From positions 146,354 to 210,353 of the forward strand of contig NZ_LYBM01000003.1 of assembly GCF_001707825.1 (NCBI RefSeq): a stretch of DNA of 64,000 nucleotides, read 5' to 3'. Origin of the DNA: Veronia pacifica. Its GTDB lineage: Bacteria > Pseudomonadota > Gammaproteobacteria > Enterobacterales > Vibrionaceae. Made by a program: the position numbers and the translations under genes. Positions 8,326 through 50,980 of this stretch are shown piece by piece; within the stretch, counting starts at the first letter, position 1; each line of letters opens with the position of its first letter. The notes under the pieces were generated by a model, which saw nothing but the letters and a program-made list of their open reading frames with translations, was not told where the DNA came from and did not search any database.

Positions 8326-8500
8326 ACACAATATCCTTTGCTATTGTTCACTGCCTGCGCTGTTATCGCTGGAGTGTCATAAGTGTGGCAGTCAAATTTA
8401 AATTCTCTCTGTGACAACTTAATAAATAATATTAACTATTCCTAATTGATATTCATATTCGAGGGCCACGACCCGAATGACAAGATCGCGGCCCAGCCTT

Positions 8501-10789: not shown

Positions 10790-10826
10790 ATGCATATCTC
10801 CACGAAATTTATATATAAGACTGTAG

Positions 10827-12038: not shown

Positions 12039-12088
12039 CCTTGAGGCCTATTCCGAATAGACTGTGTATTAATACAAAAAAAAGAAAT

Positions 12089-22617: not shown

Positions 22618-24382
22618 CGGCAGGCTCCCTTTCCTTTGTTGACACATTCCATTCACGAGACGCCTGATGCGATTGCCACATACTTTGGTAAACCGGGCAT
22701 GCCTGGACGAGCGCTTCATGCGTGCCATGGCCAACCAGAGCGCCTTTGTCCATCACAAGGATTGAATCAGCATCCACAATGGTGGAGAGTCGGTGGGCAA
22801 TCACGATCACGGTTTTATCTTTGATGAGTGAAGATAACGCTGACTGAATTAAGGCTTGGTTGTTCGCATCCGCAAATGCCGTTGCCTCATCCAGAATGAG
22901 AATGGGTGCATCCTTTAACATCGCACGGGCAATCGCTAAACGTTGTTTTTCACCGCCACTGAGAAAGACACCCTCTCCCAGTATGGTTTGATAGCCATGT
23001 GGCAACGCCATAATAAACTCGTGTGCCTGAGCGGCTTTGGCGGCATGAACGACTCTATCCTCTGATGCATCGCTACCCATGGCGATATTGTCATATACAG
23101 TTTGGCTCAGAATGATGCTTTCTTGAAAAACATACGCGGTATTTTCCATCAGATAAGGCGTGGATAATGAGGTGATTGGTTTTCCGCCAATCAAAATATC
23201 ACCCTGTTCAATATCCCAGAATCTTGCCACCAGCATTGCCAGCGTTGATTTTCCTGAACCTGAGGGGCCGACAACAGCGTTCAATGTTCCTTGCTTGAGG
23301 GAGAAAGAAACATTATCAAGTGCCAGACGCGACGTATCATCATAGCGAAAGCTGACCTTGTCGAACTCGATACCAAACTCTGAAAGCGTTTCGCTTTTAT
23401 CAGGCTCGGATAAAGGGGGACGACTTATCAACGCTTGTAACCGGTTCACCCCCTCAAAAATCTGATTGAGGTATGCCGTAAACATGGTCAGGTTATACAA
23501 CGGCTCCATCATACCGACACCAAGCAAAATACAAAGAGTGAAGCTGGCAATATCAAGCGTTCCCTGAGACCAGAAGTAAACCCCAAGGGGAAGCAACACC
23601 ACTAATCCACTATCCAATAGCGTCTTAAACGCAGCAAATGGCCAACCCGCCTCCTTCGTCCACTGCACCACCACATGATGGTAGTGACTCAAACTGGCCG
23701 TGAACAACTTGTGTGGCCTTCCGCCAGCGTTAAATGCCCTGATCACCGGCATTGCGCGCACATATTCGGTAATACTGGTATTCAGGCTCTCCAGTGCATC
23801 ATGGTAGTGACGAGATTTTTCCTCGAATCCTTTGTACATCGACATTTGACTGAAAATAGCCAGAGGGATAGGGATTAATGCCGCCAATGCCATTCGCACA
23901 TCAATAAACAGCAGAAATATAAAAACAGCGAAGGGGGTGATCAGCGATGTCACGAAATCAGAAATATGGTGCGCAACAAACAACTCAACGCGATCAATAT
24001 CTTCAGATAGGATCTTCTTGATCTCACCAGAACTTTTCTGGCTGAAAAATCCCATTGGTAACCGAGCCATATGCCCCAGTGCCAGAGTGCGAATGTTATA
24101 CTGAATCGCAAACGCAGACTTATGAGACAGCATAATCGCAATAAACAGTAAGGCGTATCGGGCTACCATAAAACATAGTGCCAGCGCCGCCCACTGCCAC
24201 ACTTGTGAGGCATCAAACCGGGGACTTAAAAGTTGCTCGAGAACAAGATACGCAAAGTAGAAAGGTGCAAGCGCACATAAGGCACTCGCAGCAGACATGA
24301 TGATTGATAAGACAAGCTTTATTTTATGCTCAGCTGAGACGTCAAACAGCCATCGCAAGCTTGCCACTGATTCCTTGTTCAT
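22610..24382 (-). CDS. ABC transporter fused permease/ATP-binding protein, first subunit of a heterodimer (YbtP/IrtA-like)
   Basis: TM domain plus NBD (GPSGSGKSTL, LSGGEKQRLAIARA, ILILDEATAFAD). Confidence 0.82.
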   Translation of the reverse strand: MNKESVASLRWLFDVSAEHKIKLVLSIIMSAASALCALAPFYFAYLVLEQLLSPRFDASQVWQWAALALCFMVARYALLFIAIMLSHKSAFAIQYNIRTLALGHMARLPMGFFSQKSSGEIKKILSEDIDRVELFVAHHISDFVTSLITPFAVFIFLLFIDVRMALAALIPIPLAIFSQMSMYKGFEEKSRHYHDALESLNTSITEYVRAMPVIRAFNAGGRPHKLFTASLSHYHHVVVQWTKEAGWPFAAFKTLLDSGLVVLLPLGVYFWSQGTLDIASFTLCILLGVGMMEPLYNLTMFTAYLNQIFEGVNRLQALISRPPLSEPDKSETLSEFGIEFDKVSFRYDDTSRLALDNVSFSLKQGTLNAVVGPSGSGKSTLAMLVARFWDIEQGDILIGGKPITSLSTPYLMENTAYVFQESIILSQTVYDNIAMGSDASEDRVVHAAKAAQAHEFIMALPHGYQTILGEGVFLSGGEKQRLAIARAMLKDAPILILDEATAFADANNQALIQSALSSLIKDKTVIVIAHRLSTIVDADSILVMDKGALVGHGTHEALVQACPVYQSMWQSHQASREWNVSTKEREPADA

Positions 24383-24530: not shown

Positions 24531-25517
24531 TCATTGGGTCAATTTCAGATATGCGCTTGGTGTAATGCCAAAATATTTTCTGAATGCCACCGAGAAGTGA
24601 CCATGATTTTGGTAGCCCACTTCACTGGCAGCAGTAATAATCTGACCTCGTTGCTCAAGCAGGATTGTGCGGGCTTTCTCCATCCGCTGTCGATGTAAAC
24701 AACCAAAAGCGGTTTGATTAAATACCTCTTTAAAACCTTGTTTTAGCTTAAAATCGTTCAAACCAACTTCACGAGCAAGTTCAATCAACGACGGTGGCGA
24801 TTCCATTCGGTCAAATAAAATCTCCCTGGCACGGTGAATCTTGCTAATGTCCGCCCTACTCATCCTCCCTGAGCACCGGGGTTTAGGTATCAGTGCTTCC
24901 AATGCTAGTGATATTAGCTGCCAACCCAAATCACGGTATTTCAGGGTATCTGATAACCTCTCAGACGAGCAGAACATCATTTGGTGAGCAATTGCAGTCA
25001 TCTCTTCTGTGCTCTCCACGACATGAAAAAAAGACCGGGGTATATTGAGAAAGGCAGGTGACAAGAGGCGCTCTAATGCTTTGCACTGATAGTTCTCAAT
25101 GAGGGATTGAACAGACTCCAGAGACACATTAACAGAAACCCCTTTAAAACTAGCAGCCTGCGCCCTGGTGTAGCCAGATACATCCTCAGCAAAGTAGATA
25201 ATCACCTTGTTAGGCGAGAGCAAAATACGCTGACCAATAGACTGCATGTAACATTCGCAGCAATCGCCCAAACTCACAAAGATCTTTAACTCTCTCGGAG
25301 AAAATCCGTCACTGCTGTACATCTCGACGCGGCGATTAAAATTGCCATCTATTGTGACTGCATTGATGCCATGATCAAGGCCATACTGGTTGAGTCTGAA
25401 CATACCAAATGACGCATCCAAGCCATAGAAGCCCGTATCGTCGACGGCATTGAACATCTCATCGTGGTCGAACTGAAAGCGGTAGAAATCATCCATGTTA
25501 TTGAGAGTGATTATCAT
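24531..25517 (-). CDS. AraC-family transcriptional regulator (YbtA/PchR-like, siderophore-system type)
   Basis: C-terminal AraC HTH (…AASEVGYQNHGHFSVAFRKYFGITPSAY). It heads the two ABC genes, and a Fur-box-like sequence overlaps its start. Confidence 0.75.
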   Translation of the reverse strand: MIITLNNMDDFYRFQFDHDEMFNAVDDTGFYGLDASFGMFRLNQYGLDHGINAVTIDGNFNRRVEMYSSDGFSPRELKIFVSLGDCCECYMQSIGQRILLSPNKVIIYFAEDVSGYTRAQAASFKGVSVNVSLESVQSLIENYQCKALERLLSPAFLNIPRSFFHVVESTEEMTAIAHQMMFCSSERLSDTLKYRDLGWQLISLALEALIPKPRCSGRMSRADISKIHRAREILFDRMESPPSLIELAREVGLNDFKLKQGFKEVFNQTAFGCLHRQRMEKARTILLEQRGQIITAASEVGYQNHGHFSVAFRKYFGITPSAYLKLTQ

Positions 25518-25537
25518 TAAAATCTGAGATTATCACT
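25501..25537 (-). promoter_or_regulatory. candidate Fur box(es)
   Basis: The minus strand reads AGTGATAATCTCAGATTTTAATGATAATCACTC. The core TAATGATAATCAC matches the Fur consensus GATAATGATAATCATTATC. Confidence 0.5.
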
Positions 25538-25714
25538 CCGCGTCTTTTAGAAACAAGATAAAAATCCACTTTAAAAACCTCTTGTGGATCTTGGTCTCTT
25601 TTCAACTGAATATTAAACACGGGGTGTTTTTAATTATTTATTTCAGGCAAATACCGATTTCACTTGGCATTTTCACACCCCACAAAGGCTTCTACTTTAG
25701 ATATACGATCTCAC

Positions 25715-26968
25715 TCAACACTTCACCGATGGCAAATCCTTCCAACGGGTAGTGTATTGAGGCGATAGAAACTCTCTTCGCATTCCCCACTTTGGTGTAA
25801 TTCCCTGTGCCGCCAAAAAAACCGTACCTTTGCCATAGCGATGATTCAGCCCATCAAATGCTTTCATTAGTGCTGGGTTTCCGGGCTGTTCATCAAACAA
25901 GTCAGGCTGGATATGTTCTGCACTTGCCAAATCTAAGAGTCCAACCCCGACTTTGTAATATTTCACCCCCGACTCGAAGAGCAAAGGAATCAGGTCAGAC
26001 ACAGCGCGGGTGATCACTGCCGTATCGTCGACAGCAAAAGCAAAACGGTGCAACTGTTTAAAGCTTTTAGGGTTGTCGTCATAAGGGGAATTACCCGCGA
26101 ATACCATCAACACCGAGCACACTGACTTTTGTGCCCGTAACTTGGCTGCAGCTATGCCTGCATGCTTACACAAAGCCTGATGTAACGAGACTTCATCTAC
26201 GATTCGCTGTCCCATTGAGCGAGTAGAGAAAATCTGCTGTTTATCAGCACGGGATACGTCCCAACCTTTGCAGACCTCACCGTTGAGTTCACGAACTGTG
26301 CGCTCCATTTCCACATTAAACTCACGACGCATCAGCGCGGGTTTCTGCCGCGACAAAGACAGGGCAGTTTCAATACCTTGCCTCTTGAGCCGCACAGAGA
26401 TTCGGCGGCCAACACCCCAGACATCCTCTACCGCCATCTGCTCCAGGATAGAGAGACGTTGTGACTCCGAATCAAGCACACAGACACCGTCAAACCCCGC
26501 CATTTTTTTTGCCGCATGATTAGCCACTTTGGCCAGCGTCAGAGTCGGCCCCATCCCTACCCCTACTGCCAGCCGACACTCTTTCCAAACCGCCCGACGC
26601 AGGGCCTTTGCGTGTTCTTGTAAATGTGGAATGGCACTGCAGCGGTGAAAAGAAAGAAACGATTCATCAATGGAATACACATGCTGATCCGGTGCAAAAC
26701 GACCGATCACCTGCATCATCTTGTCCGACAAATCACCATACAGTTCATAATTTGACGAACAAACAACCACAGAATTCGCCCGGCAAAGCGCTTGGACCTG
26801 AAAAAAGGGTTTGAATTTCTCTACGCCTATTTCTTTTGCCTGACGGTTGGCAGCCACGACACAACCATCGTTGTTTGATAGCACGACCATTGGTTTTCCT
26901 CGCCAGTCCGGGCGAAAAACCTGCTCGGCACTGCAGTAAAATGCATTGGCATCGACTAGCGCGAACAT
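25715..26968 (-). CDS. umuC: DNA polymerase V catalytic subunit (Y-family)
   Basis: Collinear with E. coli UmuC from MFALVDANAFY through SPQYTTRW. Confidence 0.93.
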   Translation of the reverse strand: MFALVDANAFYCSAEQVFRPDWRGKPMVVLSNNDGCVVAANRQAKEIGVEKFKPFFQVQALCRANSVVVCSSNYELYGDLSDKMMQVIGRFAPDQHVYSIDESFLSFHRCSAIPHLQEHAKALRRAVWKECRLAVGVGMGPTLTLAKVANHAAKKMAGFDGVCVLDSESQRLSILEQMAVEDVWGVGRRISVRLKRQGIETALSLSRQKPALMRREFNVEMERTVRELNGEVCKGWDVSRADKQQIFSTRSMGQRIVDEVSLHQALCKHAGIAAAKLRAQKSVCSVLMVFAGNSPYDDNPKSFKQLHRFAFAVDDTAVITRAVSDLIPLLFESGVKYYKVGVGLLDLASAEHIQPDLFDEQPGNPALMKAFDGLNHRYGKGTVFLAAQGITPKWGMRREFLSPQYTTRWKDLPSVKC

Positions 26969-33337: not shown

Positions 33338-33367
33338 CGAAAAGAATTCCCACCCGGCTTGGGTGGG
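33338..33367 (-). terminator. rho-independent terminator of the TelA operon
   Basis: The minus strand reads CCCACCC-aagcc-GGGTGGG then AATTCTTTTCG, 10 nt after the telA stop. Confidence 0.8.
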
Positions 33368-33376
33368 ATGGGTAAT

Positions 33377-34441
33377 TTAGCGTTCCAAAGATTGTTGAAG
33401 TGCTACCTTAAGCTCCTGCTCAGCTCTCTCAATAACTTGCTGTGCTTGCTCTCGTTGTGCACGCCCCTCCTTCACCCGCAACAGGGTATTATTCAGGGTT
33501 TCAATGGTCAGTTGGTTAACCGCTTGCAAAGAGTCAATATCAAGGATTCCACGTTGATAGTTCTCAGCAATTTGCTCTTCCAGTACTTTCAGCTTTTCTG
33601 CATTCTGCACGTACTGCCGATTGGTATAATCTTTAACCGCTCGCGTCACCTTCAACGCTTTTTCTTTTTCATAATTCGAAATGGCAATGAGGAACTGGCG
33701 TTTCCAGAGAGGAAAAGTGTTGTGAACGATATCCTGAATATCCTCCATCAACATTTTGTTTCCCTCCTGCGACAACCTGATCTGCGGCGCAGTCTGTATA
33801 GCGGCCAATCGGGTCAATTCGAGGTTGTGTACGCGTTTCTCAAGACGGGCAACCGCCTGAGTGGCATCACGATACTTTTGCGCATCAAGCGCGTCACCGC
33901 TACTCTCAGACTGCTGTAACAGTTGAGGTAACAGGTTCTGATTTAAGTCATTCAGCTTATATTTTCCTGCCGCAATATATTCCTCTAACCCTTTCAAAAA
34001 CGCCAGGTTGTGATCGTAAAGGGCATCCAACTGACCAATGTCGTGAGCCAGTTTAATTTCCTGTGCCTCCAGACGGCTGGATAAGGCATCAAGCTGACCC
34101 TTAACCGAATCAAAGCTTGCAGAGAATGATTTGAACGAGTCAAACATTTCACCAATTAGCGGTAACTTAGAGAGCAGGTTAGTCTTCCCGATACCATCAA
34201 ATTCGGCACCATCCATTGATGACACCATTTCTTGTAAAATATTGCCCGCCTCGCCGCTGTCCCGAACCCGAATCTGATCCAACACCTGGTCTGAGAACGC
34301 GGTGATCTGCTCCAGCGCCTCTTTGCCAAAGGTGATCGTCGCAACGGTATCAAAAGGGTCGAAACGACCAGCTATCTCAATCGCCTGCGGCGTCACCTCA
34401 ACGTCCCTGATCTGCGCAGTCTGATGAGTCAATTCAGTCAT
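33377..34441 (-). CDS. telA: TelA/KlaB family toxic-anion-resistance protein
   Basis: About 355 aa, coiled-coil rich, with TelA family length and pattern. RBS aaagga sits 7 nt before ATG 34441. The upstream TTG at 34504 has no RBS. Confidence 0.7.
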   Translation of the reverse strand: MTELTHQTAQIRDVEVTPQAIEIAGRFDPFDTVATITFGKEALEQITAFSDQVLDQIRVRDSGEAGNILQEMVSSMDGAEFDGIGKTNLLSKLPLIGEMFDSFKSFSASFDSVKGQLDALSSRLEAQEIKLAHDIGQLDALYDHNLAFLKGLEEYIAAGKYKLNDLNQNLLPQLLQQSESSGDALDAQKYRDATQAVARLEKRVHNLELTRLAAIQTAPQIRLSQEGNKMLMEDIQDIVHNTFPLWKRQFLIAISNYEKEKALKVTRAVKDYTNRQYVQNAEKLKVLEEQIAENYQRGILDIDSLQAVNQLTIETLNNTLLRVKEGRAQREQAQQVIERAEQELKVALQQSLER

Positions 34442-34645
34442 GAGGTATTCCTTTAATCTGTTGCAGTTGGTAGAAAAGCCCACCAACTGCGGTTCAACTA
34501 ACAAAATACGCAGAGAAATCTGCGCTCAGGGTCATGTCTTCCTGATAGATTTATTCGCAACGCATGCATGTCACACTCTGCGGTCGTTTATATCGTGGGA
34601 GCAGAAACTGTATGGTACTTAAACCACGCTTCATGAAAGTGAAGT

Positions 34646-37600
34646 TCAATGACTTTCTGCCTCGCTACTCGGACTGAACCGGGAGAGTTGCTGGTTAAGC
34701 AATGCCAGTTGCTGCACAACCTGACCGCCTCTGTCTTCGGTATCTCCCATGAGTTGCTGACGTTGGTAACCTTCTTTGATGTTCTGCCAACGAGCTTGTT
34801 GATCGGGTGTCATGTCACCGCGTATTTCAGCCAGCTTGAGCAGGTTCTCCTCAGTGCCGGCTGCCAGAGTCTGTGCCTCTCCCTGATAATGATCCTGCAG
34901 CAAGGTATTAAGCTCTTGGTCTGTCATCACGGCTGAGATCTTCTCTGACAACTTGTTCATGTTGCGATAGGAACCCTGCAGTTTAAACGGCGGTTCAATA
35001 CGGTATTGGTCGGCAGTGGCCGCAGACTGAATGTACTGCTGGTTGACTTTCAGCACCGTCTGTTGAGCCAACATCAGTTTCTGCAGCGTGGTAACGATTT
35101 CGTTAGCCTCGGTAGATGAGTAAGCATGGCTCATTTCACTCAGTGCAATACTCTCACCCTGTGCCATAGCGACAAAGCGATAAAGATCGTTGAGATCACG
35201 GGTCGCCAAAGGCGCAAGTACACTGTTGGAGGTCAGTGAGTTTTCGATAAAGCTCAGTTCAAATGCAACTTTCTGATCAGAAAGCATGTCACCAAGGTTA
35301 TAAATATCAGCACGGTTAGCGAGCATATCCGGAATACGGAAGGCCTCACCACTCTCGGTATAAGGGTTACCTGCCATCGCAATCGCGAATTTCTTACCCC
35401 GCATATCATAGGTTTTGGTTTTTCCTTGCCAGGTGCCTTCAATACGTCTGGTACCGTCACAGAGAGAGATAAATTTCTGTAAAAATTCCGGATGAGTATG
35501 CTGGATATCATCAAGATACAAGAGCACGTTGTTACCCATTTCAAAGGCGAGGTTAATTTTCTCTATCTCACGGGCTGCATTTTGATCAGGGGCATCGGCG
35601 GGATCCAAAGACGTCGCCTGATGACCAATTGAAGGTCCGTTGATCTTCATAAAAACCAGACCCAGCTTATGCGCTACATACTCAATGAGTGTGGTTTTTC
35701 CGTAACCCGGCGGAGAAATGAGTAGCAACATACCCATCAAATCTGTACGTTTTTTGTCACCCAGTGTCCCCATCTGCTTGGCAAAGTTATCACCAATCAA
35801 GGGCAGGTAACTGTCACTGATCAACTTATTTCTGACAAACGAGGTAAGCGGACGCGGCTTGAATTCATTGAGACGAAAATTCTCTTTTGCTGAACTCAAC
35901 ATCTCAGTTCGTTGTGAGAGGTAGTTTTCAAATTCCGGCAACACTCTGCATCTATGATGTTCATTGCGCAGCAGAAAATCGTCCAAGACCAGAGACAACC
36001 TGCCGTTTTGCAGCCTGTCGTGCTCTCCGAGCAAACCCTGCACCTCGCAGGCTAACGAAAAGTCATCACTGACGATGCTCAAGTCGGAACAGGTTCTCAC
36101 CACGGCAAGTGTCGCTGCCTCTACAACAAAGTCCGCACCGTACGATTTTTGTTTGGTGTAGGCCGTCAGCCACTGTTGGTGATCGACAAACAAGTCCTGT
36201 ATCGGTCCTTTAGTAGGCTGCCAGCCCAAGCTGCGGCGAAATTGAAGATAATCGTCACAAAGGCTCTGCGCATCCTGACTGACCGCGATACGCCGATCGG
36301 CATCCGCCAAGACATTCACTAAATAATCAGCGGCTTCAGCGGATTGTTCACCGTCGATCCGCTCAGACAGTTGTTGCTGGAGCTCATGGTAAGCCTCTAA
36401 GCAATTGAGATGGCTCTTGAGCAGGTTGGCGTTGGTAGCACTAACACGAAACTGCATCAGTGTGTCCGCCGGGCATGCGATCAGCCACAGTAAGGCCGAC
36501 GATCGGGCGAGCTGACTGAATCGCAATAAACCAGCCTGTTGGTAAACAGGTAAAATGCTCTCAAGGATCGCTGTCGCATCATTATCGTGAATGCCTTTTA
36601 CATAGCCCTCCCGATAGCGTGGAGCAGCAAAACGCTGCACATGCGACAGTAAATCTCCTTGTTTCGTTAACTCTGCAAGATCGGACAAGGTCTGCCCTTG
36701 CTCATTATTGACCGCCTGATGAAGTACCAGATAAGCGAGAAACTCAGCGCGATAAACCTGCTCACTCTCCGACGCCACATCAAGTCTCGCCATTGATTGC
36801 AGCTTGAGAAAAGCCTGATCTTCAATTGTCTGATAAAAGTCAGTACCAGAAATATGGGTACAGAGCTGTCCTTTGTGATCAACCAGAGACAAATCGAGAG
36901 GTTGTTGGTTAACACTGAATCTATGTTTTCCCAATCGAAGGACTTTGCCGCCCTGCTCAAAGATGTCTTGATTATCACGCAATGATCGCAATGACTGATC
37001 TTGCAAAGACTTGATACGTGAATCAACACTGTCAGCTTTAACGCTGTCGCCCAGTTCGCGAATCGACTGCGACAGCTGGTGTAATTTGAGCACCATTGCA
37101 TCTGTTGCAAAATAACTGTTCAGCGCCGCAACATCATCAAAACGCTCTACCCGCTTTTCGATACTGGTAATCGTCACGTTGGCAGCCTGCAATAGATTCT
37201 GCACCCGGCGTTGTTGGCCCGCCACCAACTGCTGTTTGTGGTTTTCCAGTGTCGACTGGATCTCGTCACGCTTGGCATAAATCTCAGCCAAAAACTGATC
37301 AAAATCAGCAAAACGAGATTCAAGTTTATCTAATTGACCAACCAAACGAGCGAGTTGATTGTCGCATTCATCCGGCGTCGTCGCCTGCTCCATGGCACTA
37401 CTGACAGACTGGCTGAGCAACTTAAACTGCGCACTGAACTCGGCTTGTGCCTCCTCGCTCTGCAAACTTTTTGCTTTTCCGCGAAGCTTTGCCGATACCG
37501 TATTTAATAGGGAAGAAACCTCTGTTGTCAGGTCCAGAATACGAGTCGCCTGCGTCGGGTCCTCTGTCTCTATTTCAGTGACTTCTTCAGTGACCAGTTG

Positions 37601-39514
37601 TAAGTCGCTACGTAAAATATCGACCTGTGATTGGAGTTGCTGAAGGTCTGCTGTTTTTTGCAGTTTACCGAGTTGTTCTTCGATCTCTTCGATCTGTTTT
37701 CTATAGGGTAAATAGGCTTTTTCTTCCTGCAGCAACGTCAGTAACTGATGATTCAAAGACTCCCGCTGTTCCTGCAAGATTGCCAGCAATTGATCGAGTT
37801 CTACCTGATCGACATAATGTTGCTGGCGAAGCGCCATGACGGCACCCACCTGACCTTTTACCTCTGACAATAATGCCAGTAAGGTATTAGCCTGATCCTT
37901 TGGCGCAAGTTTAATTTTTCCGCTGAGTTCCGTTAGTACCTGCTGTTGGTGCTCAACACTTTTTGCTGCGTGTGACTGAAGCTGCTGAACCTTAGCAAAC
38001 TCATCAATGATTTTGTCAGCCGTATCCATCAACTCCGTGATGGCCTGTCCTATACCCTGTGCATAATCATGTTCGAGCCAGTTATAGTGATCACGGGTTG
38101 ACTGACACTGCTTCAGCAACACCTCATAAGCAGTTTGTGTAACCTCTTCAGTCTGGGAAAGCTGACAAATAGATAATACTGACGATAACGCCCTAACCAG
38201 CTCTGCGTTACCGAGATTAAATAAAGGGCTACCAGCGCTTGATGATCCATTGATATTGGCGTAGTGCTCAGTGGTCGAAAAAGGTGTTTCCCATACGCGA
38301 AGAGGATGGATAGTCGAGGCATCCGCATTTTCAGACAGCTGGAAAACTAACATCCGGCCATCTGGATAAAGGCTATAACCGTGGCTCTCCATCGGTGCCT
38401 CAAACCGCTTCTCAATCAGGTTGTAGGTATAGGAGATATAATGGCCCGACACTGCATCGAAGAAGATATAGAGGATATCTTCACCATTCGGTGACGTGAT
38501 CATCTGGAAAAACTTCAGGTGTTCAGGTTCAAAATCGAACTGTTTACGTTCTCCGTTCGCCAACACATAACCGCTGGCATATAACACCCCATGGCCTTCT
38601 GGTAACACTTTAAAACTGCTTGCCATCGCGTCAGCACGAACCACTGACTGGTTTAATGGGTTATAGATAAAGTAGCGGCTCTTTTTTTCTCGGCTGGGCC
38701 TGATTCTGAGCGCAATTAAGTCGTCAACAAATGCATAGGCAATGTCAGCATCAGCAACGCTTTGATAAGGATCATCAACTTCTTCACTATAGATACCCTT
38801 GCCATCTTGCGTGTTGTCCTCAATTTTGATGCTCAGGTCACCGCCGATGCAATCCACAAACAAACGGTCTTCAATCGAAACATGGGGATGGTCGCCAAGT
38901 ATATGATTGTCACGGTTAGTCGATTGCCATTCCACGTCAAACTGGGCCACGCTCTCAAGTGGCGTATGGCCATGTGAGTCAAGGTATTCCGTCGAGCCTG
39001 CATTGAGCTGAAAACGAAACACCTTCCTATCTTCAGGTCGCGTACCAATCTGGAAGGCAATGTAAAGAACATTCTCCTGTCGCGAAATTTGCGACAGCCT
39101 TGCATCACGGTAATAGGTGAATAGCTCAGTAAACTCATGAACGAAGCGTGGATCAGCAAGAAAGCTGTCATCAACGGCTAGGGGCTCAACTCTGAAGGCC
39201 CCCTCGTTGTCATGAAACTGATAGAGGCCGAAGACATCAGAAAGTGACGGCGTCACTTTCATGCCAACTTTTACATGGTAACCAAACAATAATTGCTGAT
39301 TGACCTGAGCCATATCAATGGGAATACAGCGGGCATCGGTCTGAACATTAGCCTTTCCGACCAGTTTTCGTTCCTGACCGCCAAAGATCTGTTGCCGAGC
39401 TTGATTGAATGACTGAGAAAGAGAGGATAAATGCTTGCCCTGTTGGGACAGACGGGATTTCAGAACCTCGTAAGCACCGCCTTCACTCACAGCCTTTTGT
39501 GTCGTGTCTGACAT
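34646..39514 (-). CDS. 1622-aa protein with an embedded MoxR/AAA_5-type AAA+ ATPase module (about residues 1180-1340), coiled-coil rich; function unknown
   Basis: Walker A ISPPGYGKTTLIEY, Walker B VLLYLDDI, sensor-1-like AMAGNPYTE and Arg finger IPDMLANRADIY. The flanking regions show no recognisable domain. Confidence 0.75.
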   Translation of the reverse strand: MSDTTQKAVSEGGAYEVLKSRLSQQGKHLSSLSQSFNQARQQIFGGQERKLVGKANVQTDARCIPIDMAQVNQQLLFGYHVKVGMKVTPSLSDVFGLYQFHDNEGAFRVEPLAVDDSFLADPRFVHEFTELFTYYRDARLSQISRQENVLYIAFQIGTRPEDRKVFRFQLNAGSTEYLDSHGHTPLESVAQFDVEWQSTNRDNHILGDHPHVSIEDRLFVDCIGGDLSIKIEDNTQDGKGIYSEEVDDPYQSVADADIAYAFVDDLIALRIRPSREKKSRYFIYNPLNQSVVRADAMASSFKVLPEGHGVLYASGYVLANGERKQFDFEPEHLKFFQMITSPNGEDILYIFFDAVSGHYISYTYNLIEKRFEAPMESHGYSLYPDGRMLVFQLSENADASTIHPLRVWETPFSTTEHYANINGSSSAGSPLFNLGNAELVRALSSVLSICQLSQTEEVTQTAYEVLLKQCQSTRDHYNWLEHDYAQGIGQAITELMDTADKIIDEFAKVQQLQSHAAKSVEHQQQVLTELSGKIKLAPKDQANTLLALLSEVKGQVGAVMALRQQHYVDQVELDQLLAILQEQRESLNHQLLTLLQEEKAYLPYRKQIEEIEEQLGKLQKTADLQQLQSQVDILRSDLQLVTEEVTEIETEDPTQATRILDLTTEVSSLLNTVSAKLRGKAKSLQSEEAQAEFSAQFKLLSQSVSSAMEQATTPDECDNQLARLVGQLDKLESRFADFDQFLAEIYAKRDEIQSTLENHKQQLVAGQQRRVQNLLQAANVTITSIEKRVERFDDVAALNSYFATDAMVLKLHQLSQSIRELGDSVKADSVDSRIKSLQDQSLRSLRDNQDIFEQGGKVLRLGKHRFSVNQQPLDLSLVDHKGQLCTHISGTDFYQTIEDQAFLKLQSMARLDVASESEQVYRAEFLAYLVLHQAVNNEQGQTLSDLAELTKQGDLLSHVQRFAAPRYREGYVKGIHDNDATAILESILPVYQQAGLLRFSQLARSSALLWLIACPADTLMQFRVSATNANLLKSHLNCLEAYHELQQQLSERIDGEQSAEAADYLVNVLADADRRIAVSQDAQSLCDDYLQFRRSLGWQPTKGPIQDLFVDHQQWLTAYTKQKSYGADFVVEAATLAVVRTCSDLSIVSDDFSLACEVQGLLGEHDRLQNGRLSLVLDDFLLRNEHHRCRVLPEFENYLSQRTEMLSSAKENFRLNEFKPRPLTSFVRNKLISDSYLPLIGDNFAKQMGTLGDKKRTDLMGMLLLISPPGYGKTTLIEYVAHKLGLVFMKINGPSIGHQATSLDPADAPDQNAAREIEKINLAFEMGNNVLLYLDDIQHTHPEFLQKFISLCDGTRRIEGTWQGKTKTYDMRGKKFAIAMAGNPYTESGEAFRIPDMLANRADIYNLGDMLSDQKVAFELSFIENSLTSNSVLAPLATRDLNDLYRFVAMAQGESIALSEMSHAYSSTEANEIVTTLQKLMLAQQTVLKVNQQYIQSAATADQYRIEPPFKLQGSYRNMNKLSEKISAVMTDQELNTLLQDHYQGEAQTLAAGTEENLLKLAEIRGDMTPDQQARWQNIKEGYQRQQLMGDTEDRGGQVVQQLALLNQQLSRFSPSSEAESH

Positions 39515-39571
39515 GCTGATACCTGTTTATCCCGTCTCTGATGAGACGGGATCCTGTGAGAGAGAAAATAG

Positions 39572-41659
39572 TTAAGCTTGGATATCTGATGGGGTGGCCA
39601 GAGAGCTCTGAATCTTCTTGAGTAGCTCCGTCGCACCACCTTGGGAATTCAATAGGCTGGCAAGTGCCACATTACTCAGATCACTACTTTTCATGTCAGT
39701 ATTTTCAAGAATGGCTTTAATGTCTTCTGGCAAGCTGCGATTACCGTCGATGTAATCAGACACCAGTGGGTTGAGCACTTTTGATTGCTCAAATTTAGTA
39801 TCAACGGCTGCCGCATCAAGAATAGTGCGACGGATTTGTTCCATCCCTTCACCGCCGAACAACTTGATGTCCGCTTTACTTAAGGCTTCCGCCAGAGCTT
39901 TGGCGTTTTCACTGACAATCGCTTTCTGTGCGTCAATACGCGCGACTTCCAGCTCTTTGTTTTGCTGCAACTGCATTACCCACTTGTCATGCTCACGGGT
40001 ATGCTCATCGTATTGCTGAGCCGCCTCAAACCTCGCCGTTTGTGCTTCTGCTTCTGCCAGACCTTTCGCACGCAATGCCTGCGCTTCTGCCTCACCCGCA
40101 CTTTGTAAGGTGTAAGCTTCGGCTTCGCCTGTTTCCTTGATAGCTTGCGCACGTTCGCGCTCCACTTCGACTTCTGCCAAGCCCGTCGCGCTTATCACTT
40201 CTCTCTCTGCCTGTGCCATCCGTTCTTTTGCCGCGGCTTCACGCTCTTTCGCGACATAATCAGCCTCAGCTTGCTTAGTTTTTACTACCTGATCCGCTTC
40301 AGCCTGACGGGTTTTCACAGCCAGTTCATTCTCAGCGTCGCGAGTTTTCACCTTGAGGTCCGCTTCATTCTCAATCAAGGTGCGCTCAGCTCGCTCACGG
40401 GCCGCTTCTTTCTCTGCTCGGGCAGCCACCAGTAACTCCAATTGCGCAGATTCAGCCGCCGCCTCCGCTTCAATCAGCTTGACCCGTTTCTCACGATTCA
40501 CTTTTTCGTTTACGCGAAGATTTTCGGTTTCTTCCTCTTCACGGGCAATTTTACGCTCAATTTCGACCCGTTGTGATCGCGTTTCGGCAACTGATTTTAG
40601 TGCCTCTTCCACCGTGGTCTCTTTTTGCATTTCACGCTCGGCAACCTCTGTCGCCGTTCTGACCTTTTCGGTCTCAACAGAGCGGTTGAGATCTTCTTCT
40701 TGTATTGCCACCTGACGCCGATTGGCAATACGGGTCATTTCGACTTCCATCTGCACACTTTCACGTTTTTTGGCGACTTCTTCTTCTGTCTCCAGCTTGG
40801 CAAGCTGAGTGATACGCTCGTATTCTTCCCGTTTTTCTGCTGCCAATGCTTCTTCTTGCGCTTTAATGATGTCAATCTCGCGCTGGGTACGGGCAATGCT
40901 TTCTTTTTCCTGTTTGTCGAGTTGCAGGCGGTTCGCTTCAGCCTCGACGTTTTTCTTTTTCATTGTGGTGCGCTCATCCTGACGGATAGCGTTGGTCTCA
41001 GTATTTTTCTGCGCTGTGATCGCAGAAATCTTTCTAATCCCCTCCACATCGAGGATGTTATCCGGTCTGTGGGCATCAAGTGCTGTCTGGTCAATCTTGT
41101 CGATCACAACATCGTAGATCTTGAAACCATCCATCTCGCTGCCAATCACATTGACCACCGCATCACGGAAAGCGCGGCGGTTAGTCAGCAACTCTTCAAA
41201 CTCAAACTGTTTAACTGCCGTCTTTAATGCTTCAGAAAACTTTGGCTGGAAGTGCTCTTTTAGACGATCCAAGTTAGAGGCTTCGTGAGCAGTGAACAGC
41301 TTGGCGACGCGAACGATATCCTCTTCTTCATGATTCACACCAATATAAAAATCTACTTTCAGATCAGCGCGAATATTATCCCGGCAATGCAAGCCTTCAT
41401 ATTCTTCACCTTCCTGGTCTTTCTGACCGCTACGGATCACGGAAATTTTTTTGCGGGTGATATCCATATATTCATGGCGATTAACAATCGGCCAGATAAA
41501 GGTTCCCGTCAACGATGCTCGGGTACGATGAAGTCCGTTAACGATGAGGGCATCACCCTCTCCACGCACTTTCTTGTAGCGTGAGGTGATAAAAATGAGA
41601 ACCAATAAAACGACACCAATTGCGGTGCCTGTAAAAATTATGCCGGGAGAAATATCCAT
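39572..41659 (-). CDS. flotillin-family SPFH/band-7 protein (YqiK/FloT-like)
   Basis: N-terminal TM helix, an SPFH domain, and a long EA/EAEA-rich coiled-coil tail. RBS aggag sits 6 nt upstream. Confidence 0.85.
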   Translation of the reverse strand: MDISPGIIFTGTAIGVVLLVLIFITSRYKKVRGEGDALIVNGLHRTRASLTGTFIWPIVNRHEYMDITRKKISVIRSGQKDQEGEEYEGLHCRDNIRADLKVDFYIGVNHEEEDIVRVAKLFTAHEASNLDRLKEHFQPKFSEALKTAVKQFEFEELLTNRRAFRDAVVNVIGSEMDGFKIYDVVIDKIDQTALDAHRPDNILDVEGIRKISAITAQKNTETNAIRQDERTTMKKKNVEAEANRLQLDKQEKESIARTQREIDIIKAQEEALAAEKREEYERITQLAKLETEEEVAKKRESVQMEVEMTRIANRRQVAIQEEDLNRSVETEKVRTATEVAEREMQKETTVEEALKSVAETRSQRVEIERKIAREEEETENLRVNEKVNREKRVKLIEAEAAAESAQLELLVAARAEKEAARERAERTLIENEADLKVKTRDAENELAVKTRQAEADQVVKTKQAEADYVAKEREAAAKERMAQAEREVISATGLAEVEVERERAQAIKETGEAEAYTLQSAGEAEAQALRAKGLAEAEAQTARFEAAQQYDEHTREHDKWVMQLQQNKELEVARIDAQKAIVSENAKALAEALSKADIKLFGGEGMEQIRRTILDAAAVDTKFEQSKVLNPLVSDYIDGNRSLPEDIKAILENTDMKSSDLSNVALASLLNSQGGATELLKKIQSSLATPSDIQA

Positions 41660-41676
41660 TTTAACTCCTGAAGTAT

Positions 41677-42306
41677 TTATCTATCTGCTTTTGCAACAAA
41701 ATAACGTGATGACGTTGAATCTTTACTAACGATGATGACATCATCACCATATTGAATATCGATATCAGGCTCAGAGACCGCATCTAGCAGGAACTCACTG
41801 CCTTTATGAAGTACCACTATTTCCCCCATATATTCATTGATAATACTGCTGTGCACCCTCGCCCGCAGACCGACAAAGTCGACGGTGGCAAATGCTTTTT
41901 TCTTGTCAAAGAGGGGAATGAGAGGTTTGAGTACCCATGACGAGACGGCAAGTCCCGCATACGCGATGAGAGGAATAGAGATCAGGTTGGCGAACAAAAT
42001 TGCGATACCTGATAACTGGCTGTGAATCAGTAGTGAAACATAAAATGCCGCAACCGTAGCAATGAAGAATGATACGCACATTGCCACCGTCAGAGGCACT
42101 TTCGATAATACTGGCGGAAGTAGGAGCCCGGAACCGGGAATATTGTCAAGGTCGAAAATGTCGAGATCGGCAGTGAAGCCATCAACGACGTTGAAGACCA
42201 GATCCACCAGCATGATCAAAGAAAAAACAACGAATGGAATAAAAAAAACATTAACTGGAAACGAAAATAGCGTCGAAAAAAAGTCATTTATATTCATAAT
42301 TGGCAT
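41677..42306 (-). CDS. YqiJ/NfeD-like inner-membrane protein (flotillin partner)
   Basis: Multi-TM N-terminus plus an NfeD-like soluble C-terminal tail. It sits 17 nt upstream of the flotillin gene, as in E. coli yqiJK. Confidence 0.65.
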   Translation of the reverse strand: MPIMNINDFFSTLFSFPVNVFFIPFVVFSLIMLVDLVFNVVDGFTADLDIFDLDNIPGSGLLLPPVLSKVPLTVAMCVSFFIATVAAFYVSLLIHSQLSGIAILFANLISIPLIAYAGLAVSSWVLKPLIPLFDKKKAFATVDFVGLRARVHSSIINEYMGEIVVLHKGSEFLLDAVSEPDIDIQYGDDVIIVSKDSTSSRYFVAKADR

Positions 42307-42695
42307 AATCGCTACATCACTCGCTTTGTGTCCAGAGACCTATCTAGTGTTAGTTTCTAGGCAGTATTTCTCAAAATTTGCCCTAGACTACGTTATGATG
42401 AGAAAAAATAAATAATTATCATTTACTTATCCGATTTACTTCAAAAATATTTATCTAACAGTCCTTTTACATCTACAGAACCTTCAGTGGTTTATTTTGC
42501 CTTGATGACCAATTAGTCAGATAGTTTGATACATATACAAATGTATCTAAATATGGGCGAGTAGATAAACAATAGGCTTGAGTCACCATGCATAACTTGA
42601 TGACCCAATCCAAAAAGGCACAATGTGGGGAGTAGTCGCAGCGATGCCAATCTGTCACCTAGCTTATTTGGTGCTGTGAAGGACGTTTGTTGCCC

Positions 42696-47617: not shown

Positions 47618-48613
47618 TCAGTGGCTCCTCACTTCTGCTTGAACTGCCTTAATTAAATCATTTGGCTGATCCAAACCAAGATATACAGTGTCAAAACCAT
47701 TTACTGGCCTTTTCAGAGCAATTCGGACATTGGGATGACCAAAGTAATTATATTGTTTTGCGTGCTCGTTTTTGGGTACTTCTGAGGCGTGCGCAGAAAT
47801 TGAAGCAATATCTTTCAATGCGATTTTAAGAGGGTTAAACACACCGAAGCGGATCATAAGGGCATCGTCTGTGATAGAGATTGGCCGACGAGACATCGCG
47901 CGGTAGTCTGCAACAAAAAATATAATGCCAATGACAGTCAGCAAACTGATAATATTCGCCGCGATAGGTGACCACACGTAGTGCAAGAAAATATGCATGA
48001 TTGGCGCTTCAGCAATCATGATGACCAAAAAGCCCAATGCATTACTTTTTGCCTGATCCTTGTTGTGATAGCTGAAGTGTTCTTTCCCCGAAAACTGGCT
48101 TGGGGAAATTCTGTGTGCCATCAAGAAAAATGTCCAAACTCGTGTTTCCAGACCAAAAAATTTAGCAACCGAATTGCTTCCTAAAACACGACGGACACTG
48201 CCATCAATCGTCTTATCAATATCTCCGTGAGTATCGAGCGTTGCTTTAATGACTAATATCACTCCAAGAACCACTGAACACTCGACAATGAGAATAATTG
48301 GCACAGATACATAGCGCACCATTTCAAGATAGGGCCAAACAATTTTGCTGGAGGCGGGAATGATGTAGCTACCAATCCAAATTGCTAACAGACAAAGAAA
48401 TAGACTCTGAACCAGTGCTTTTTTCTTTTCCCGAATACACAGCAGACAGATAATAGGTAAGGCTACGAAACTGTCGATAAGAAAGAGCCATTCAAAATTG
48501 GCATTACCAAAATTGTTTAATTCACTGTGGCTTTGATAGTAATTAGCCCAGAATATTGAAATAGCTATAAGAAATAATATGGGTAAAGCAGATCTTACTT
48601 TCAACTCCATCAA
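47618..48613 (-). CDS. hypothetical polytopic membrane protein
   Basis: 331-aa ORF with multiple hydrophobic helices and no recognised motif. Confidence 0.5.
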   Translation of the reverse strand: MMELKVRSALPILFLIAISIFWANYYQSHSELNNFGNANFEWLFLIDSFVALPIICLLCIREKKKALVQSLFLCLLAIWIGSYIIPASSKIVWPYLEMVRYVSVPIILIVECSVVLGVILVIKATLDTHGDIDKTIDGSVRRVLGSNSVAKFFGLETRVWTFFLMAHRISPSQFSGKEHFSYHNKDQAKSNALGFLVIMIAEAPIMHIFLHYVWSPIAANIISLLTVIGIIFFVADYRAMSRRPISITDDALMIRFGVFNPLKIALKDIASISAHASEVPKNEHAKQYNYFGHPNVRIALKRPVNGFDTVYLGLDQPNDLIKAVQAEVRSH

Positions 48614-48856: not shown

Positions 48857-50050
48857 TTAATCAAGAATCATCTTAAACTGTTCACGGGTTTTATGTCCCT
48901 TCTCAACCCGAGCAATATTCTTGTCCATCTCAGACGTCATTTGCTTGAGTTCAGAACAACCTGTTTTCATTGTTTCAAGGGCTTCGCTACGATACTTACT
49001 GACATTTTCCAGCGCGTTAAGACTTTTTGTAAACGCGACCTTCATGACTTCCACTTGAATAAATGGATCAGATGCTAGAGCAAGTACCTGGACACCCTGT
49101 GTTTCTAATTTATCTGCAACATCAACAATCATTTTTTCTGTCAGCTCTTTCGACGATTGCAGAGCTGTTAAGATTTTCTTTTGGCGCGCCAACGCGATAG
49201 CGAGTGTTGCAGCGATACCAAGTGCTACCATAGTATGCTTAATAGCTCGATCAACCCCACGCATCAGCTCTTCGTTGGTTTTAATTAATACCTCAGAAAC
49301 GACCCAGGCTTGCTGATAAACACCCTTAGATGTGATCAGATCACTCAGTCTTTGGCGAACCGGAAAATGAACCTCGTCTTTCAGAAAGCGCTGTTGTTCT
49401 GGATCCTGAACTTGTTCTATCCGCTCTTCGATGTTTTTATCGATATATTCGGCAAATGAGATGTAGTCATCTAGCTTAAATAACAAATGACGATAGCGAA
49501 TCTGGTCTTCTTTCAAAGTTACATTATCGCGTTCCAGCTTTGCTTTACCTTGCTCCAAGCCTGTCACGATGCTCTTTAGCACCGAGTCAGTTGACTGATA
49601 TTTCGCAATCCAGTTTTGAAGCGGCGTCGGAAGCCCCAGTACAGCCATAAAACGGCGAACGCCAGAAACACTAGAAAAGTCAAAGCCATTTGGGTCAATA
49701 CTTCGTGCAGTATCTTCCATCTTCAACAAATCTTGGGCAACGTCACCACCATTCTCGGTGTCTGCCATCAACTCGCTGATCGGACCTTGCAATAATTTAG
49801 ACTGTTGAGCCAGGCTCAATTCAATGTCATTACCAAGAGATTTGACGCTATTAGTAACTTCTAACTGGCTTTCCAATTCACGGGTACCAATAGAAAATAC
49901 ATTATCAATCCACTGATCAGCATTCGCTTTGATATCTTCGTTGATATTTTCCAAAGTTGGCGCGTCTGGAAGTTGCTTCTTCACTTGACTCGACGAGGGA
50001 AGAACCATGGCGTCTTCTTTCACAACATTTTCTAGCGTCGATGTTTGCAT
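48857..50050 (-). CDS. TelA/KlaB family toxic-anion-resistance protein (second paralog)
   Basis: 397 aa with TelA family length and helical character. It sits immediately downstream of an XpaC-like gene, the yaaN/xpaC pairing known from Bacillus. Confidence 0.65.
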   Translation of the reverse strand: MQTSTLENVVKEDAMVLPSSSQVKKQLPDAPTLENINEDIKANADQWIDNVFSIGTRELESQLEVTNSVKSLGNDIELSLAQQSKLLQGPISELMADTENGGDVAQDLLKMEDTARSIDPNGFDFSSVSGVRRFMAVLGLPTPLQNWIAKYQSTDSVLKSIVTGLEQGKAKLERDNVTLKEDQIRYRHLLFKLDDYISFAEYIDKNIEERIEQVQDPEQQRFLKDEVHFPVRQRLSDLITSKGVYQQAWVVSEVLIKTNEELMRGVDRAIKHTMVALGIAATLAIALARQKKILTALQSSKELTEKMIVDVADKLETQGVQVLALASDPFIQVEVMKVAFTKSLNALENVSKYRSEALETMKTGCSELKQMTSEMDKNIARVEKGHKTREQFKMILD

Positions 50051-50065
50051 ATCTTAAAATCCCAT

Positions 50066-50980
50066 CTATTTTGCCATATCGTATTTTTCAGTACGGCCAA
50101 TCATTACTTGAATTTCCTGTAGAGCCGTTTCCAAATCCATACCACCAGCTCCCTCGCGAGTTTGAATCGCCCCAAGGCTGCTTGTGACAATATCAATCCT
50201 AGTCATTACCTGTTCATTGATTGCAAGTATGCCGTCCATCTCTGTTAGCGCATTTTTGTGCAGTGTTAATCTTTCAACCAGAGCATTACGTGAGTCTTCA
50301 TGGAGATGCTGGTCTTGAAGACGTTCATTAATATAATCAAGGTCAATGCCGCTGACGCTTCTTCGCAGCAAAACGTAGCGTTGTAATTTATCAACGACCC
50401 CAAGATACAACTGCTCAGTCGAATTTAAGTAGCGTCCATGTGTCATTTCATCATTATCAAATTGATGATTTAAAATGTTTAGAAAAACACCAAACTTCTC
50501 ACGGAGTTTCTCAAACTGTTTCAAAGCCATCGTTTCTTTGAACTCTATCAGACCGCTAATCATGGCTTCTTCAGCCTTACTGTATGACCCAGACCAAGAC
50601 GCTGAAGTAACTGAGTTATCCTCTGGCTTATTAGATTGATGAGAGAGATTAACGTGGCTTGTTTGAGATGAGACAAACGTCTCAGGTTGTTTTGCATTTC
50701 TATCGGCTGTTTTTTCTGTGGCACCGTTTTTTACTCGCAGAAAGAGTTTTACAACTGCAATGATAGGAATAATAAAAACACCTAAAGAAAGAATAGTAAT
50801 GAAAGTGTCATAAATAACGCCTTCGTTACCGAGTAACCCCACCATTAAAGTAAACGCCAACCAAGAAAAAGCAATCGCTCGCGCTCTCTTGCTGTAACCA
50901 TTTCTAAGTAAGAACCAACTGAAAACCATAGGTAAGAAAAAAATACCAACCTGAAGAAAAAAACTAACCTTCCTATTCAT
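50066..50980 (-). CDS. XpaC-like protein (5-bromo-4-chloroindolyl phosphate hydrolysis family) with two N-terminal TM helices
   Basis: Two N-terminal TM helices followed by a soluble helical domain matching XpaC architecture. It lies 16 nt upstream of the TelA paralog. Confidence 0.55.
   Translation of the reverse strand: MNRKVSFFLQVGIFFLPMVFSWFLLRNGYSKRARAIAFSWLAFTLMVGLLGNEGVIYDTFITILSLGVFIIPIIAVVKLFLRVKNGATEKTADRNAKQPETFVSSQTSHVNLSHQSNKPEDNSVTSASWSGSYSKAEEAMISGLIEFKETMALKQFEKLREKFGVFLNILNHQFDNDEMTHGRYLNSTEQLYLGVVDKLQRYVLLRRSVSGIDLDYINERLQDQHLHEDSRNALVERLTLHKNALTEMDGILAINEQVMTRIDIVTSSLGAIQTREGAGGMDLETALQEIQVMIGRTEKYDMAK

Follow-up and report, generated by a model that had tools for sequence, protein, structure and literature searches.

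What does a giant ATPase do in one gene cluster with a flotillin, a membrane partner of the flotillin and a TelA protein? The question is raised by a 64-kb stretch of the Veronia pacifica genome (contig NZ_LYBM01000003.1; "the window" hereafter means the whole stretch), in which four minus-strand genes run in one direction across positions 33377-42306, with an intrinsic terminator at the end. A sequence-only reading of this DNA had described four co-directional genes and taken them for a four-gene system. The open reading frames (ORFs) all lie on the minus strand, in agreement with that description; the extent of the system proved to be smaller. The first three genes occur together in 70 of 70 loci and TelA in 14 of 69, from which we conclude that the core comprises three genes and that TelA was added in particular lineages. 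We propose that the locus is the V. pacifica copy of a conserved three-gene membrane module with a TelA of its own, which may act as a sub-membrane stress and remodelling machine, a reading to which we give a probability of roughly 0.55. The four genes, in the order of transcription, are as follows.

41677..42306, minus strand: g1, YqiJ/NfeD-like inner-membrane protein of 209 aa (profile-profile match to YqiJ)
39572..41659, minus strand: g2, flotillin-like SPFH scaffold of 695 aa (Band_7 match and YqiK homology)
34646..39514, minus strand: g3, giant cytoplasmic ATPase of 1622 aa (Pfam matches DUF3686, DUF7902, AAA and AAA_5)
33377..34441, minus strand: g4, TelA of 354 aa (PF05816, E = 6.9e-78)

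The intergenic gaps are 17 nt between g1 and g2, 57 nt between g2 and g3 and 204 nt between g3 and telA.

Conservation of the triad and its accessory genes

When 185,579 species genomes were searched, at least 595 species proved to carry a relative of g3, with identities of 40-45% across phyla. At least six phyla are represented, and among the groups are Gamma- and Betaproteobacteria, Myxococcota, Actinomycetota, Acidobacteriota and Planctomycetota. Neighbourhoods were counted with iterated hidden Markov models (HMMs) in the 80 best-scoring of the at least 595 loci, which are not an unbiased sample, and the counts for the triad use the 70 loci with enough upstream sequence. For the high-GC Xanthomonas/Lysobacter group the counts come from HMM hits, as spurious antisense ORFs defeat a simple non-overlapping ORF filter.

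A g1-like gene, an SPFH gene and the giant gene follow one another in this fixed order on one strand in 70/70 loci, with median gaps of 33 and 89 nt, the g1-like gene lying directly upstream of the SPFH gene in each of them. These loci come from Proteobacteria, Myxococcota, Actinomycetota, Acidobacteriota and Planctomycetota, and g1-g2-g3 is thus an invariant conserved core. The sequence-only reading had asked whether flotillin and TelA are always adjacent to the giant gene; this holds for the flotillin and fails for TelA. Around the triad, four kinds of accessory gene recur.

Upstream of g1: DUF2170(YjfI)-PspA(YjfJ) dyad, 31/70 loci
Downstream of the giant gene: PLDc_2 hydrolase, 14 loci
Downstream of the giant gene: rhomboid, 7-8 loci
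Downstream of the giant gene: TelA, 14/69 loci

All 14 TelA-bearing loci belong to Vibrionaceae or to the Xanthomonas/Lysobacter group, and in loci of the latter group the PspA dyad and TelA stand together in one cluster. The recurrent accessories (PspA_IM30 with DUF2170/YjfI, PLDc_2, rhomboid and TelA) are membrane-associated or plausibly membrane-directed.

Two irregular arrangements were seen among the relatives. The gap between g2 and g3 exceeds 500 nt, with extra sequence of up to 3.4 kb, in L027, L039, L054, L067 and L068, which come from Betaproteobacteria and a Zetaproteobacteria metagenome-assembled genome. In Veronia nyctiphanis (L003), two separate ORFs (10001-11302 and 11317-14871) take the place of a single giant gene and the flotillin ORF is shortened (7852-9141), which could reflect pseudogenisation or an error of the draft assembly.

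Relation to a predicted operon class

The sequence-only reading was not aware of this gene combination having been characterised. The triad has in fact been described by Ravi et al. 2024 (mSystems, PMC11237479, section 19; preprint 2020), in a purely computational study that derived the operon from comparative genomics; the link to TelA is absent there, both from the text and from the supplement. The operon of Ravi et al. consists of a band-7/flotillin protein, an AAA+ ATPase with a coiled coil and a beta-propeller, and a transmembrane (TM) protein of the YqiJ/YuaF type, with CesT/Tir-PspA and a PLD/HKD hydrolase as optional parts and with "abbreviated operons" that lack PspA. For the PspA-linked form, the authors suggested chaperone-like assembly or remodelling of sub-membrane complexes (PMC11237479).

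The V. pacifica locus shares with this class the three core architectures in one co-directional cluster, and the optional PLD/HKD and CesT/Tir(YjfI)-PspA(YjfJ) parts were recovered here in other genomes. It differs in having TelA and in lacking PspA, YjfI and PLD. Because the window contains no PspA or DUF2170 homologue, we regard the locus as the "abbreviated" form of the class. New with respect to the earlier work are the dedicated TelA subfamily, the loss of the PLD gene and an intergenic hairpin of conserved position, each described below. In the literature searched, no relevant paper links TelA, flotillin and AAA.

The giant ATPase

The protein g3 opens with a helix, which is followed by DUF3686 and by a coiled coil that contains DUF7902. 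A helical stretch of low conservation leads on to the AAA+ module, and the C-terminal part is again helical. No TM segment was found, and the sequence is 100% identical to that of a V. pacifica database protein. The sequence-only reading had considered the AAA+ core to be the only recognisable part of the protein. Pfam recognises two further domains, as listed here.

38084..39430, minus strand (aa 29-477): DUF3686 domain, Pfam E = 6.5e-152
37469..37720, minus strand (aa 599-682): DUF7902 (PF25472) inside the coiled-coil region, E = 4e-18
35159..35800, minus strand (about aa 1239-1452): AAA+ module, with Pfam AAA and AAA_5 at 1263-1386

The structure model of DUF3686 is confident and mostly beta-strand, with weak beta-propeller matches, which hints at a propeller-like beta-rich fold. 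The domain occurs in 593 representative clusters among 1.84 billion; most of the proteins concerned measure 1600-1900 aa, and the domain is essentially confined to proteins of the size of the giant ATPase. The coiled-coil region is marked by its composition, as residues 500-830 contain 46-66% E/K/Q/L/A/R and 2-4% Pro+Gly.

The AAA+ module exceeds the cut-offs of both PF00004 and PF07728. The Walker A motif GYGKT occupies residues 1270-1274, N1383 is a candidate for sensor 1 and R1401 a candidate for the Arg finger; Walker A, the sensor-1 Asn and the candidate Arg finger are invariant in the homologues examined. The Walker B motif LLYLDDIQH (residues 1330-1338, window 35501-35527) has DD instead of DE, and both D1335 and D1336 are invariant across 12-20 homologues. 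Sequence search of the PDB with g3 returned marginal matches in the Walker-A region only. The solved structures nearest to the AAA+ module are those of the MoxR ATPases CbbQ and NorQ, with small score margins over other clades.

MoxR-type ATPases are usually paired with VWA partners. Compared with CbbQ, NorQ and RavA, which are about 250-500 aa long and have such partners, g3 is of 1622 aa, has putative propeller and coiled-coil regions and the DD form of Walker B, and lacks a VWA neighbour.

In NCBI and UniRef records g3 is labelled "DNA repair ATPase", a label taken from the description of PF12458, and no paper in the literature searched mentions the DUF3686/PF12458 or the DUF7902 family. 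Nothing in our results supports this name.

The flotillin and its YqiJ/NfeD-like partner

The flotillin g2 begins with a TM helix, seen as the only TM peak of the protein, at residue 6. A Band_7 domain comes next, and then a long coiled coil rich in Glu and Ala, which is followed by the C-terminal region. Scanning of the full-length protein gave no Pfam or NCBIfam match, probably because of the biased coiled coil. With the N-terminal 253 residues alone, Band_7 (PF01145) scores 38.4 bits (E = 1.8e-9), above its cut-off of 23.6. Comparison with E. coli YqiK by BLASTP gave 2e-25, with 27% identity over 436 aa. The Flot domain (PF15975) reaches 15.4 bits (E = 0.021) in g2, below its cut-off of 27, versus 139.8 bits in E. 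coli YqiK. These matches identify g2, as far as homology searches can tell, as a remote YqiK-like SPFH/flotillin homologue. The long EA-rich tail noticed in the sequence-only reading is seen in residues 200-560, with 20% Glu and 17% Ala. A PDB sequence search with g2 found no match.

The membrane protein g1 has about four hydrophobic segments (four Kyte-Doolittle peaks above 1.6), and the alignment of its family reveals a conserved beta-rich C-terminus, which we call a putative OB-like domain. According to the same alignment, translation probably starts at the second ATG at 42297 (MNINDFF...) rather than at 42306; neither ATG is preceded by a strong Shine-Dalgarno sequence. On its own, g1 matches no Pfam or NCBIfam model. 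When a family profile of 28 sequences was compared with E. coli YqiJ by hhalign, a match with a probability of 95.1% and E = 3.3e-8 was obtained over 132 columns, covering the membrane and C-terminal regions. The YqiJ_N model is matched by 1 of the 28 family members, and the match to YuaF (2k14) has E = 0.31. Judged by this profile-profile comparison, through which alone the relationship is visible, g1 is a remote homologue of the YqiJ/NfeD type. The assignments of both proteins in the sequence-only reading, g1 as YqiJ/NfeD-like and g2 as a YqiK-like flotillin, therefore hold.

An NfeD-type membrane gene directly upstream of a flotillin gene is a known operon logic (Hinderhofer et al. 2009, PMC2636767). 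The V. pacifica locus has this NfeD-flotillin order in common with the pairs E. coli YqiJ-YqiK and B. subtilis YuaF-FloT (YuaG), g1 being homologous to YqiJ and g2 to YqiK. However, the E. coli locus contains two genes only, whereas here a 1622-aa ATPase is obligately attached, and g1 and g2 are too divergent for the Pfam models YqiJ_N, YqiJ_OB and Flot.

A TelA subfamily attached to the operon

The start of g4 was taken as the ATG preceded by AAGGAA, the mechanical ORF running on to 34504. The protein matches PF05816 over its full length (262.5 bits, residues 22-349 onto model positions 3-331 of 332), in accordance with the TelA assignment made earlier. A PDB sequence search with TelA found no match. 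A relationship of TelA to the major vault protein has been claimed (Suprenant 2007).

Relatives of g4 with at least 54% identity occur in Vibrionaceae, Neptuniibacter, Amphritea, Oceanisphaera and Aliagarivorans, after which the identity drops to 43% or less. In three contexts above this drop (L082-L084), TelA follows directly after the giant gene; in two of them a PLD gene lies in between and the genes overlap. In two contexts below it, at 38% identity, TelA stands beside PF10112/XpaC. Synteny of the subfamily with the giant gene is strict in four gammaproteobacterial lineages, which are Vibrionaceae, Neptuniibacter, Oceanisphaera and Aliagarivorans; in L004, L082 and L083 the telA gene overlaps the gene before it or directly adjoins it. 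Toward the operon-linked TelAs of the Xanthomonas/Lysobacter group, g4 has 28-31% identity, with E values down to 1e-39. By these relationships, g4 belongs to a TelA subfamily dedicated to the giant-ATPase operon, though TelA is not part of the core. The marine and plant-associated lineages that have gained the specialised TelA are Vibrionaceae, the Xanthomonas/Lysobacter group and a number of further marine Gammaproteobacteria. The full-length PF05816 match is shared with the classical TelAs (TelA-XpaC; kilA/klaABC and ter clusters). The classical proteins stand beside PF10112/XpaC, whereas the operon subfamily comes after the giant ATPase gene or a PLD gene, and its identity to the next TelAs does not exceed 43%.

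The 204-nt gap between g3 and telA is unusual. A 236-aa PLDc_2 gene occupies this position in V. nyctiphanis (L003, 14874-15584) and in Vibrio ostreicida (L002, 14869-15579). The V. nyctiphanis locus aligns on both flanks, with a PLD segment of ~820 bp there versus a non-homologous spacer of ~300 bp in V. pacifica. We attribute the unusual gap to replacement of the PLD segment by this spacer. No PLD remnant was found in the gap by tblastn, and no PLD gene is present elsewhere in the window. V. sagamiensis (L004) and Aliagarivorans (L084) likewise have no PLD gene.

A second, divergent TelA gene lies in the window at 48857-50050 on the minus strand (PF05816, E = 2e-49), and its product gives no BLAST match at 1e-3 with the operon TelA. 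According to the sequence-only reading, it is accompanied by XpaC. The TelA part of that statement stands; the XpaC partner is unconfirmed because the flanking ORFs, at 50066-50980 and 47618-48613 on the minus strand (304 and 331 aa), have no Pfam match at 1e-3.

Terminator, spacers and hairpins

The non-coding elements of the locus are the following.

42307..42695, minus strand: upstream AT-rich intergenic region of 389 nt, which separates the start of g1 from the stop codon of the preceding FAD-oxidase/Fe-S gene
39529..39552, minus strand: g2-g3 stem-loop, 10-bp stem and 4-nt loop, without a U-tract
34442..34645, minus strand: g3-telA spacer of 204 nt with a terminator-like hairpin; a PLD-family gene at this position in relatives
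33348..33368, minus strand: intrinsic terminator of the operon, 8-bp stem with 6 G-C pairs, followed by the T-rich tail ATTCTTTTCG

The terminator lies directly past the telA stop and folds at -16 kcal/mol (z = -3.1), as expected from the clean terminator that had been noted at 33.34 kb. A promoter region had also been placed at about 42.3-42.7 kb. Sigma-70-like matches are present in the upstream region at 42444-42415 and 42334-42305, but the 16 matches found in 42307-42695 do not exceed chance, with 14.7 expected from shuffles, and we therefore claim no promoter for the operon; the earlier placement is not established.

The stem-loop between g2 and g3 had been noted as an 8-bp hairpin at 39531-39550. 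It is real, and its stem in fact reaches 10 bp; the predicted energy is -18.1 kcal/mol (z = -3.5), and 0 of 200 shuffles were equally stable. A stable G+C-rich stem-loop was found in the g2-g3 spacer of all six genomes examined (V. pacifica, L002, L003, L004, L082 and L084), for instance at about 9958-9987 in L002, about 9963-9986 in L003 and about 9957-9985 in L004. The stem sequences differ among V. pacifica and the five relatives, so that the position is kept and the sequence is not. A U-rich tract follows the stem-loop in L004 and L082 and is missing in the others. The element is a possible intra-operon attenuator or mRNA-stabilising structure. Because a stable hairpin keeps its position with differing stems in five relatives, we suggest that flotillin and ATPase are made in different amounts, with the output of the scaffold probably above that of the ATPase. 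The earlier idea that this hairpin tunes expression has thus gained support.

The weak hairpin noted earlier in the g3-telA gap is present at 34508-34525, with 7 pairs followed by ATTTTGTTAG. The surrounding stretch of 56 nt (34490-34545) has z = -2.2 and folds as two adjacent hairpins. This weaker, terminator-like hairpin may leave telA partly uncoupled from the genes upstream.

Proposed function

By analogy with better-known systems, the module most likely acts as a sub-membrane stress and remodelling machine. We infer this function from the company that the module keeps in other genomes, which agrees with the membrane-stress or envelope-remodelling machine suggested in the sequence-only reading. 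The flotillin would oligomerise on the cytoplasmic face of the inner membrane together with its YqiJ partner, forming a microdomain or a cup. The giant ATPase would dock on this flotillin-YqiJ platform through its propeller and coiled-coil regions and, at the expense of ATP, build up, take apart or relocate helical proteins beneath the membrane. The candidate client is TelA in V. pacifica and YjfJ, of the PspA family, in other lineages; the coiled coil of the flotillin itself is a further possible client. The activity of the module would then be part of an envelope-stress or membrane-repair response. The action of the ATPase may be likened to that of Vps4 with ESCRT-III and, more loosely, to that of FtsH with HflK/C. 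TelA has been summarised as forming sub-membrane structures (Iyer et al. 2021, PMC7824862). For this protein without known mechanism, the module offers a defined set of candidate partners.

Vps4 is an AAA+ disassemblase of polymers of the Snf7/PspA superfamily. The likeness to Vps4-ESCRT-III lies in an AAA+ ATPase that is genomically coupled to a PspA-family protein, here in 31 of 70 loci, and the same Vps4-type functional analogy was drawn for PspA-linked AAA+ ATPases in PMC11237479. A 2025 review (PMC7619361) states that a Vps4-like ATPase to regulate PspA/ESCRT-III polymers is apparently missing from bacteria, and that the roles of the Band-7 partners of PspA are undetermined. Because the ATPase adjoins flotillin in every testable locus, PspA in 44% and dedicated TelA in others, the module is a testable candidate for the missing Vps4-like activity. 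More tentatively, and as a speculation we hold with little confidence, the giant DUF3686 ATPase might be the missing bacterial counterpart of Vps4, an ATP-driven remodeller placed on a flotillin-YqiJ platform and assembling or recycling helical sub-membrane polymers, of YjfJ in many lineages and of the dedicated TelA in Vibrionaceae and the Xanthomonas/Lysobacter group. If true, this would provide the first mechanistic role for TelA and would explain how the dynamics of PspA-like polymers are controlled in some bacteria.

Several observations weigh against a stress and remodelling machine at this locus. Since Walker B is DD in all homologues examined, ATP hydrolysis by g3 may be slow or regulatory. 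Scans of window genes and Pfam annotation of the three contexts L082-L084 revealed no VWA-domain partner. Homologues of PspA, DUF2170, PLD and rhomboid are missing from the window, so any client of the ATPase in V. pacifica is a guess. The 204-nt gap with its terminator-like hairpin leaves the co-transcription of telA in V. pacifica in doubt. The counts of neighbours come from the selected, best-scoring loci, and the literature searched holds no experimental study of any member of the triad.

Alternative explanations

HflK/C forms an SPFH cage around the membrane AAA+ protease FtsH, and it served here as a working analogy, in so far as an SPFH scaffold and an AAA+ machine appear to be functionally coupled there too, at the inner membrane. 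By this analogy the flotillin-YqiJ assembly would be a cage that regulates the ATPase as HflK/C encloses FtsH, sequestering or restricting it, and the substrates would be membrane proteins to be extracted or remodelled and not TelA, PspA or flotillin. We consider this unlikely, even though the HflK/C-FtsH precedent exists, the SPFH and AAA+ genes are obligately linked (70/70 loci) and g2 combines one N-terminal TM helix with a long coiled coil, like the SPFH proteins that form cages. Cup-like SPFH oligomers are also noted in PMC7619361. The giant ATPase, however, has neither a TM anchor nor a protease domain, its AAA+ module differs in type from that of FtsH, and enclosure is not indicated; a cage would have to hold a very large hexamer, about 1.1 MDa in mass with subunits of 1622 aa. 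Moreover, the bulk of the flotillin is predicted from its topology to be cytoplasmic, whereas HflK/C faces the periplasm. Such a cage also overlaps the remodelling machine that we prefer, differing from it only in the identity of the clients.

A second question is whether TelA belongs to the system at all. It could be a functionally independent neighbour with its own promoter in the 204-nt gap, the locus then being a three-gene operon and an adjacent gene, as the hairpin with its T-rich tail in this gap and the lack of TelA from 55 of 69 loci would allow. In Vibrionaceae, Neptuniibacter, Oceanisphaera and Aliagarivorans, the subfamily is nevertheless placed right behind the giant gene, overlapping or abutting the preceding gene in L004, L082 and L083. 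In addition, g4 is closer to the operon TelA of the Xanthomonas/Lysobacter group (28-31%) than to the second TelA of its own window, with which no BLAST match was obtained. A functional link would survive separate transcription, and the evidence from synteny stands; an independent TelA is accordingly improbable.

An equally poor prospect is a role of the module in anti-phage or abortive-infection defence, in which a flotillin-YqiJ sensor would activate the giant AAA+ NTPase and, where present, a PLD nuclease effector, with TelA acting as in the Ter-type defence-related stress systems. Large AAA+ NTPases are common in defence systems, and PLD/HKD hydrolases stand beside the ATPase in 14 loci. 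The genomic neighbourhoods of the module differ among genomes and therefore suggest cassette-like movement, and TelA and the Ter system have been placed in phage-host conflict (Iyer et al., PMC7824862). Yet PLD is optional and missing at the V. pacifica locus, and the commonest partner is the PspA dyad, a housekeeping component of the membrane-stress response. The ATPase keeps 40-45% identity across phyla, which is unusual for fast-evolving defence genes, and the genes that flank the operon in the window (FAD oxidase, SDR and siderophore-interacting reductase) have metabolic roles and form no defence island. A known defence system was rejected as an identity for the locus, as scanning of the four proteins against PADLOC-DB gave no match for any of them at E of 0.01 or below.

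Least probable by far is that g3 is a DNA-repair ATPase whose membrane linkage reflects membrane-tethered DNA processing, as its name in the NCBI and UniRef records, weak RuvB matches in the Walker-A region (E about 0.01, and also among the top E-values of Foldseek) and a PLD-family partner that could be a nuclease might suggest, since the name derives from a Pfam description of a family that goes unmentioned in the literature searched, no DNA-binding domain was detected in g3, the RuvB similarity is confined to the generic P-loop region, and the recurrent neighbours are membrane, sub-membrane or optional PLD-family proteins, none with a recognised DNA-binding or DNA-repair domain.

Other features of the window

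Two further groups of genes in the window are unrelated to the operon. A gene for a UmuC-like Y-family polymerase (IMS, IMS_C and DUF4113) is located beside a gene for an AraC-type regulator at 24531-26968 on the minus strand, and a pair of fused ABC exporter genes is located at 20875-24382 on the same strand.

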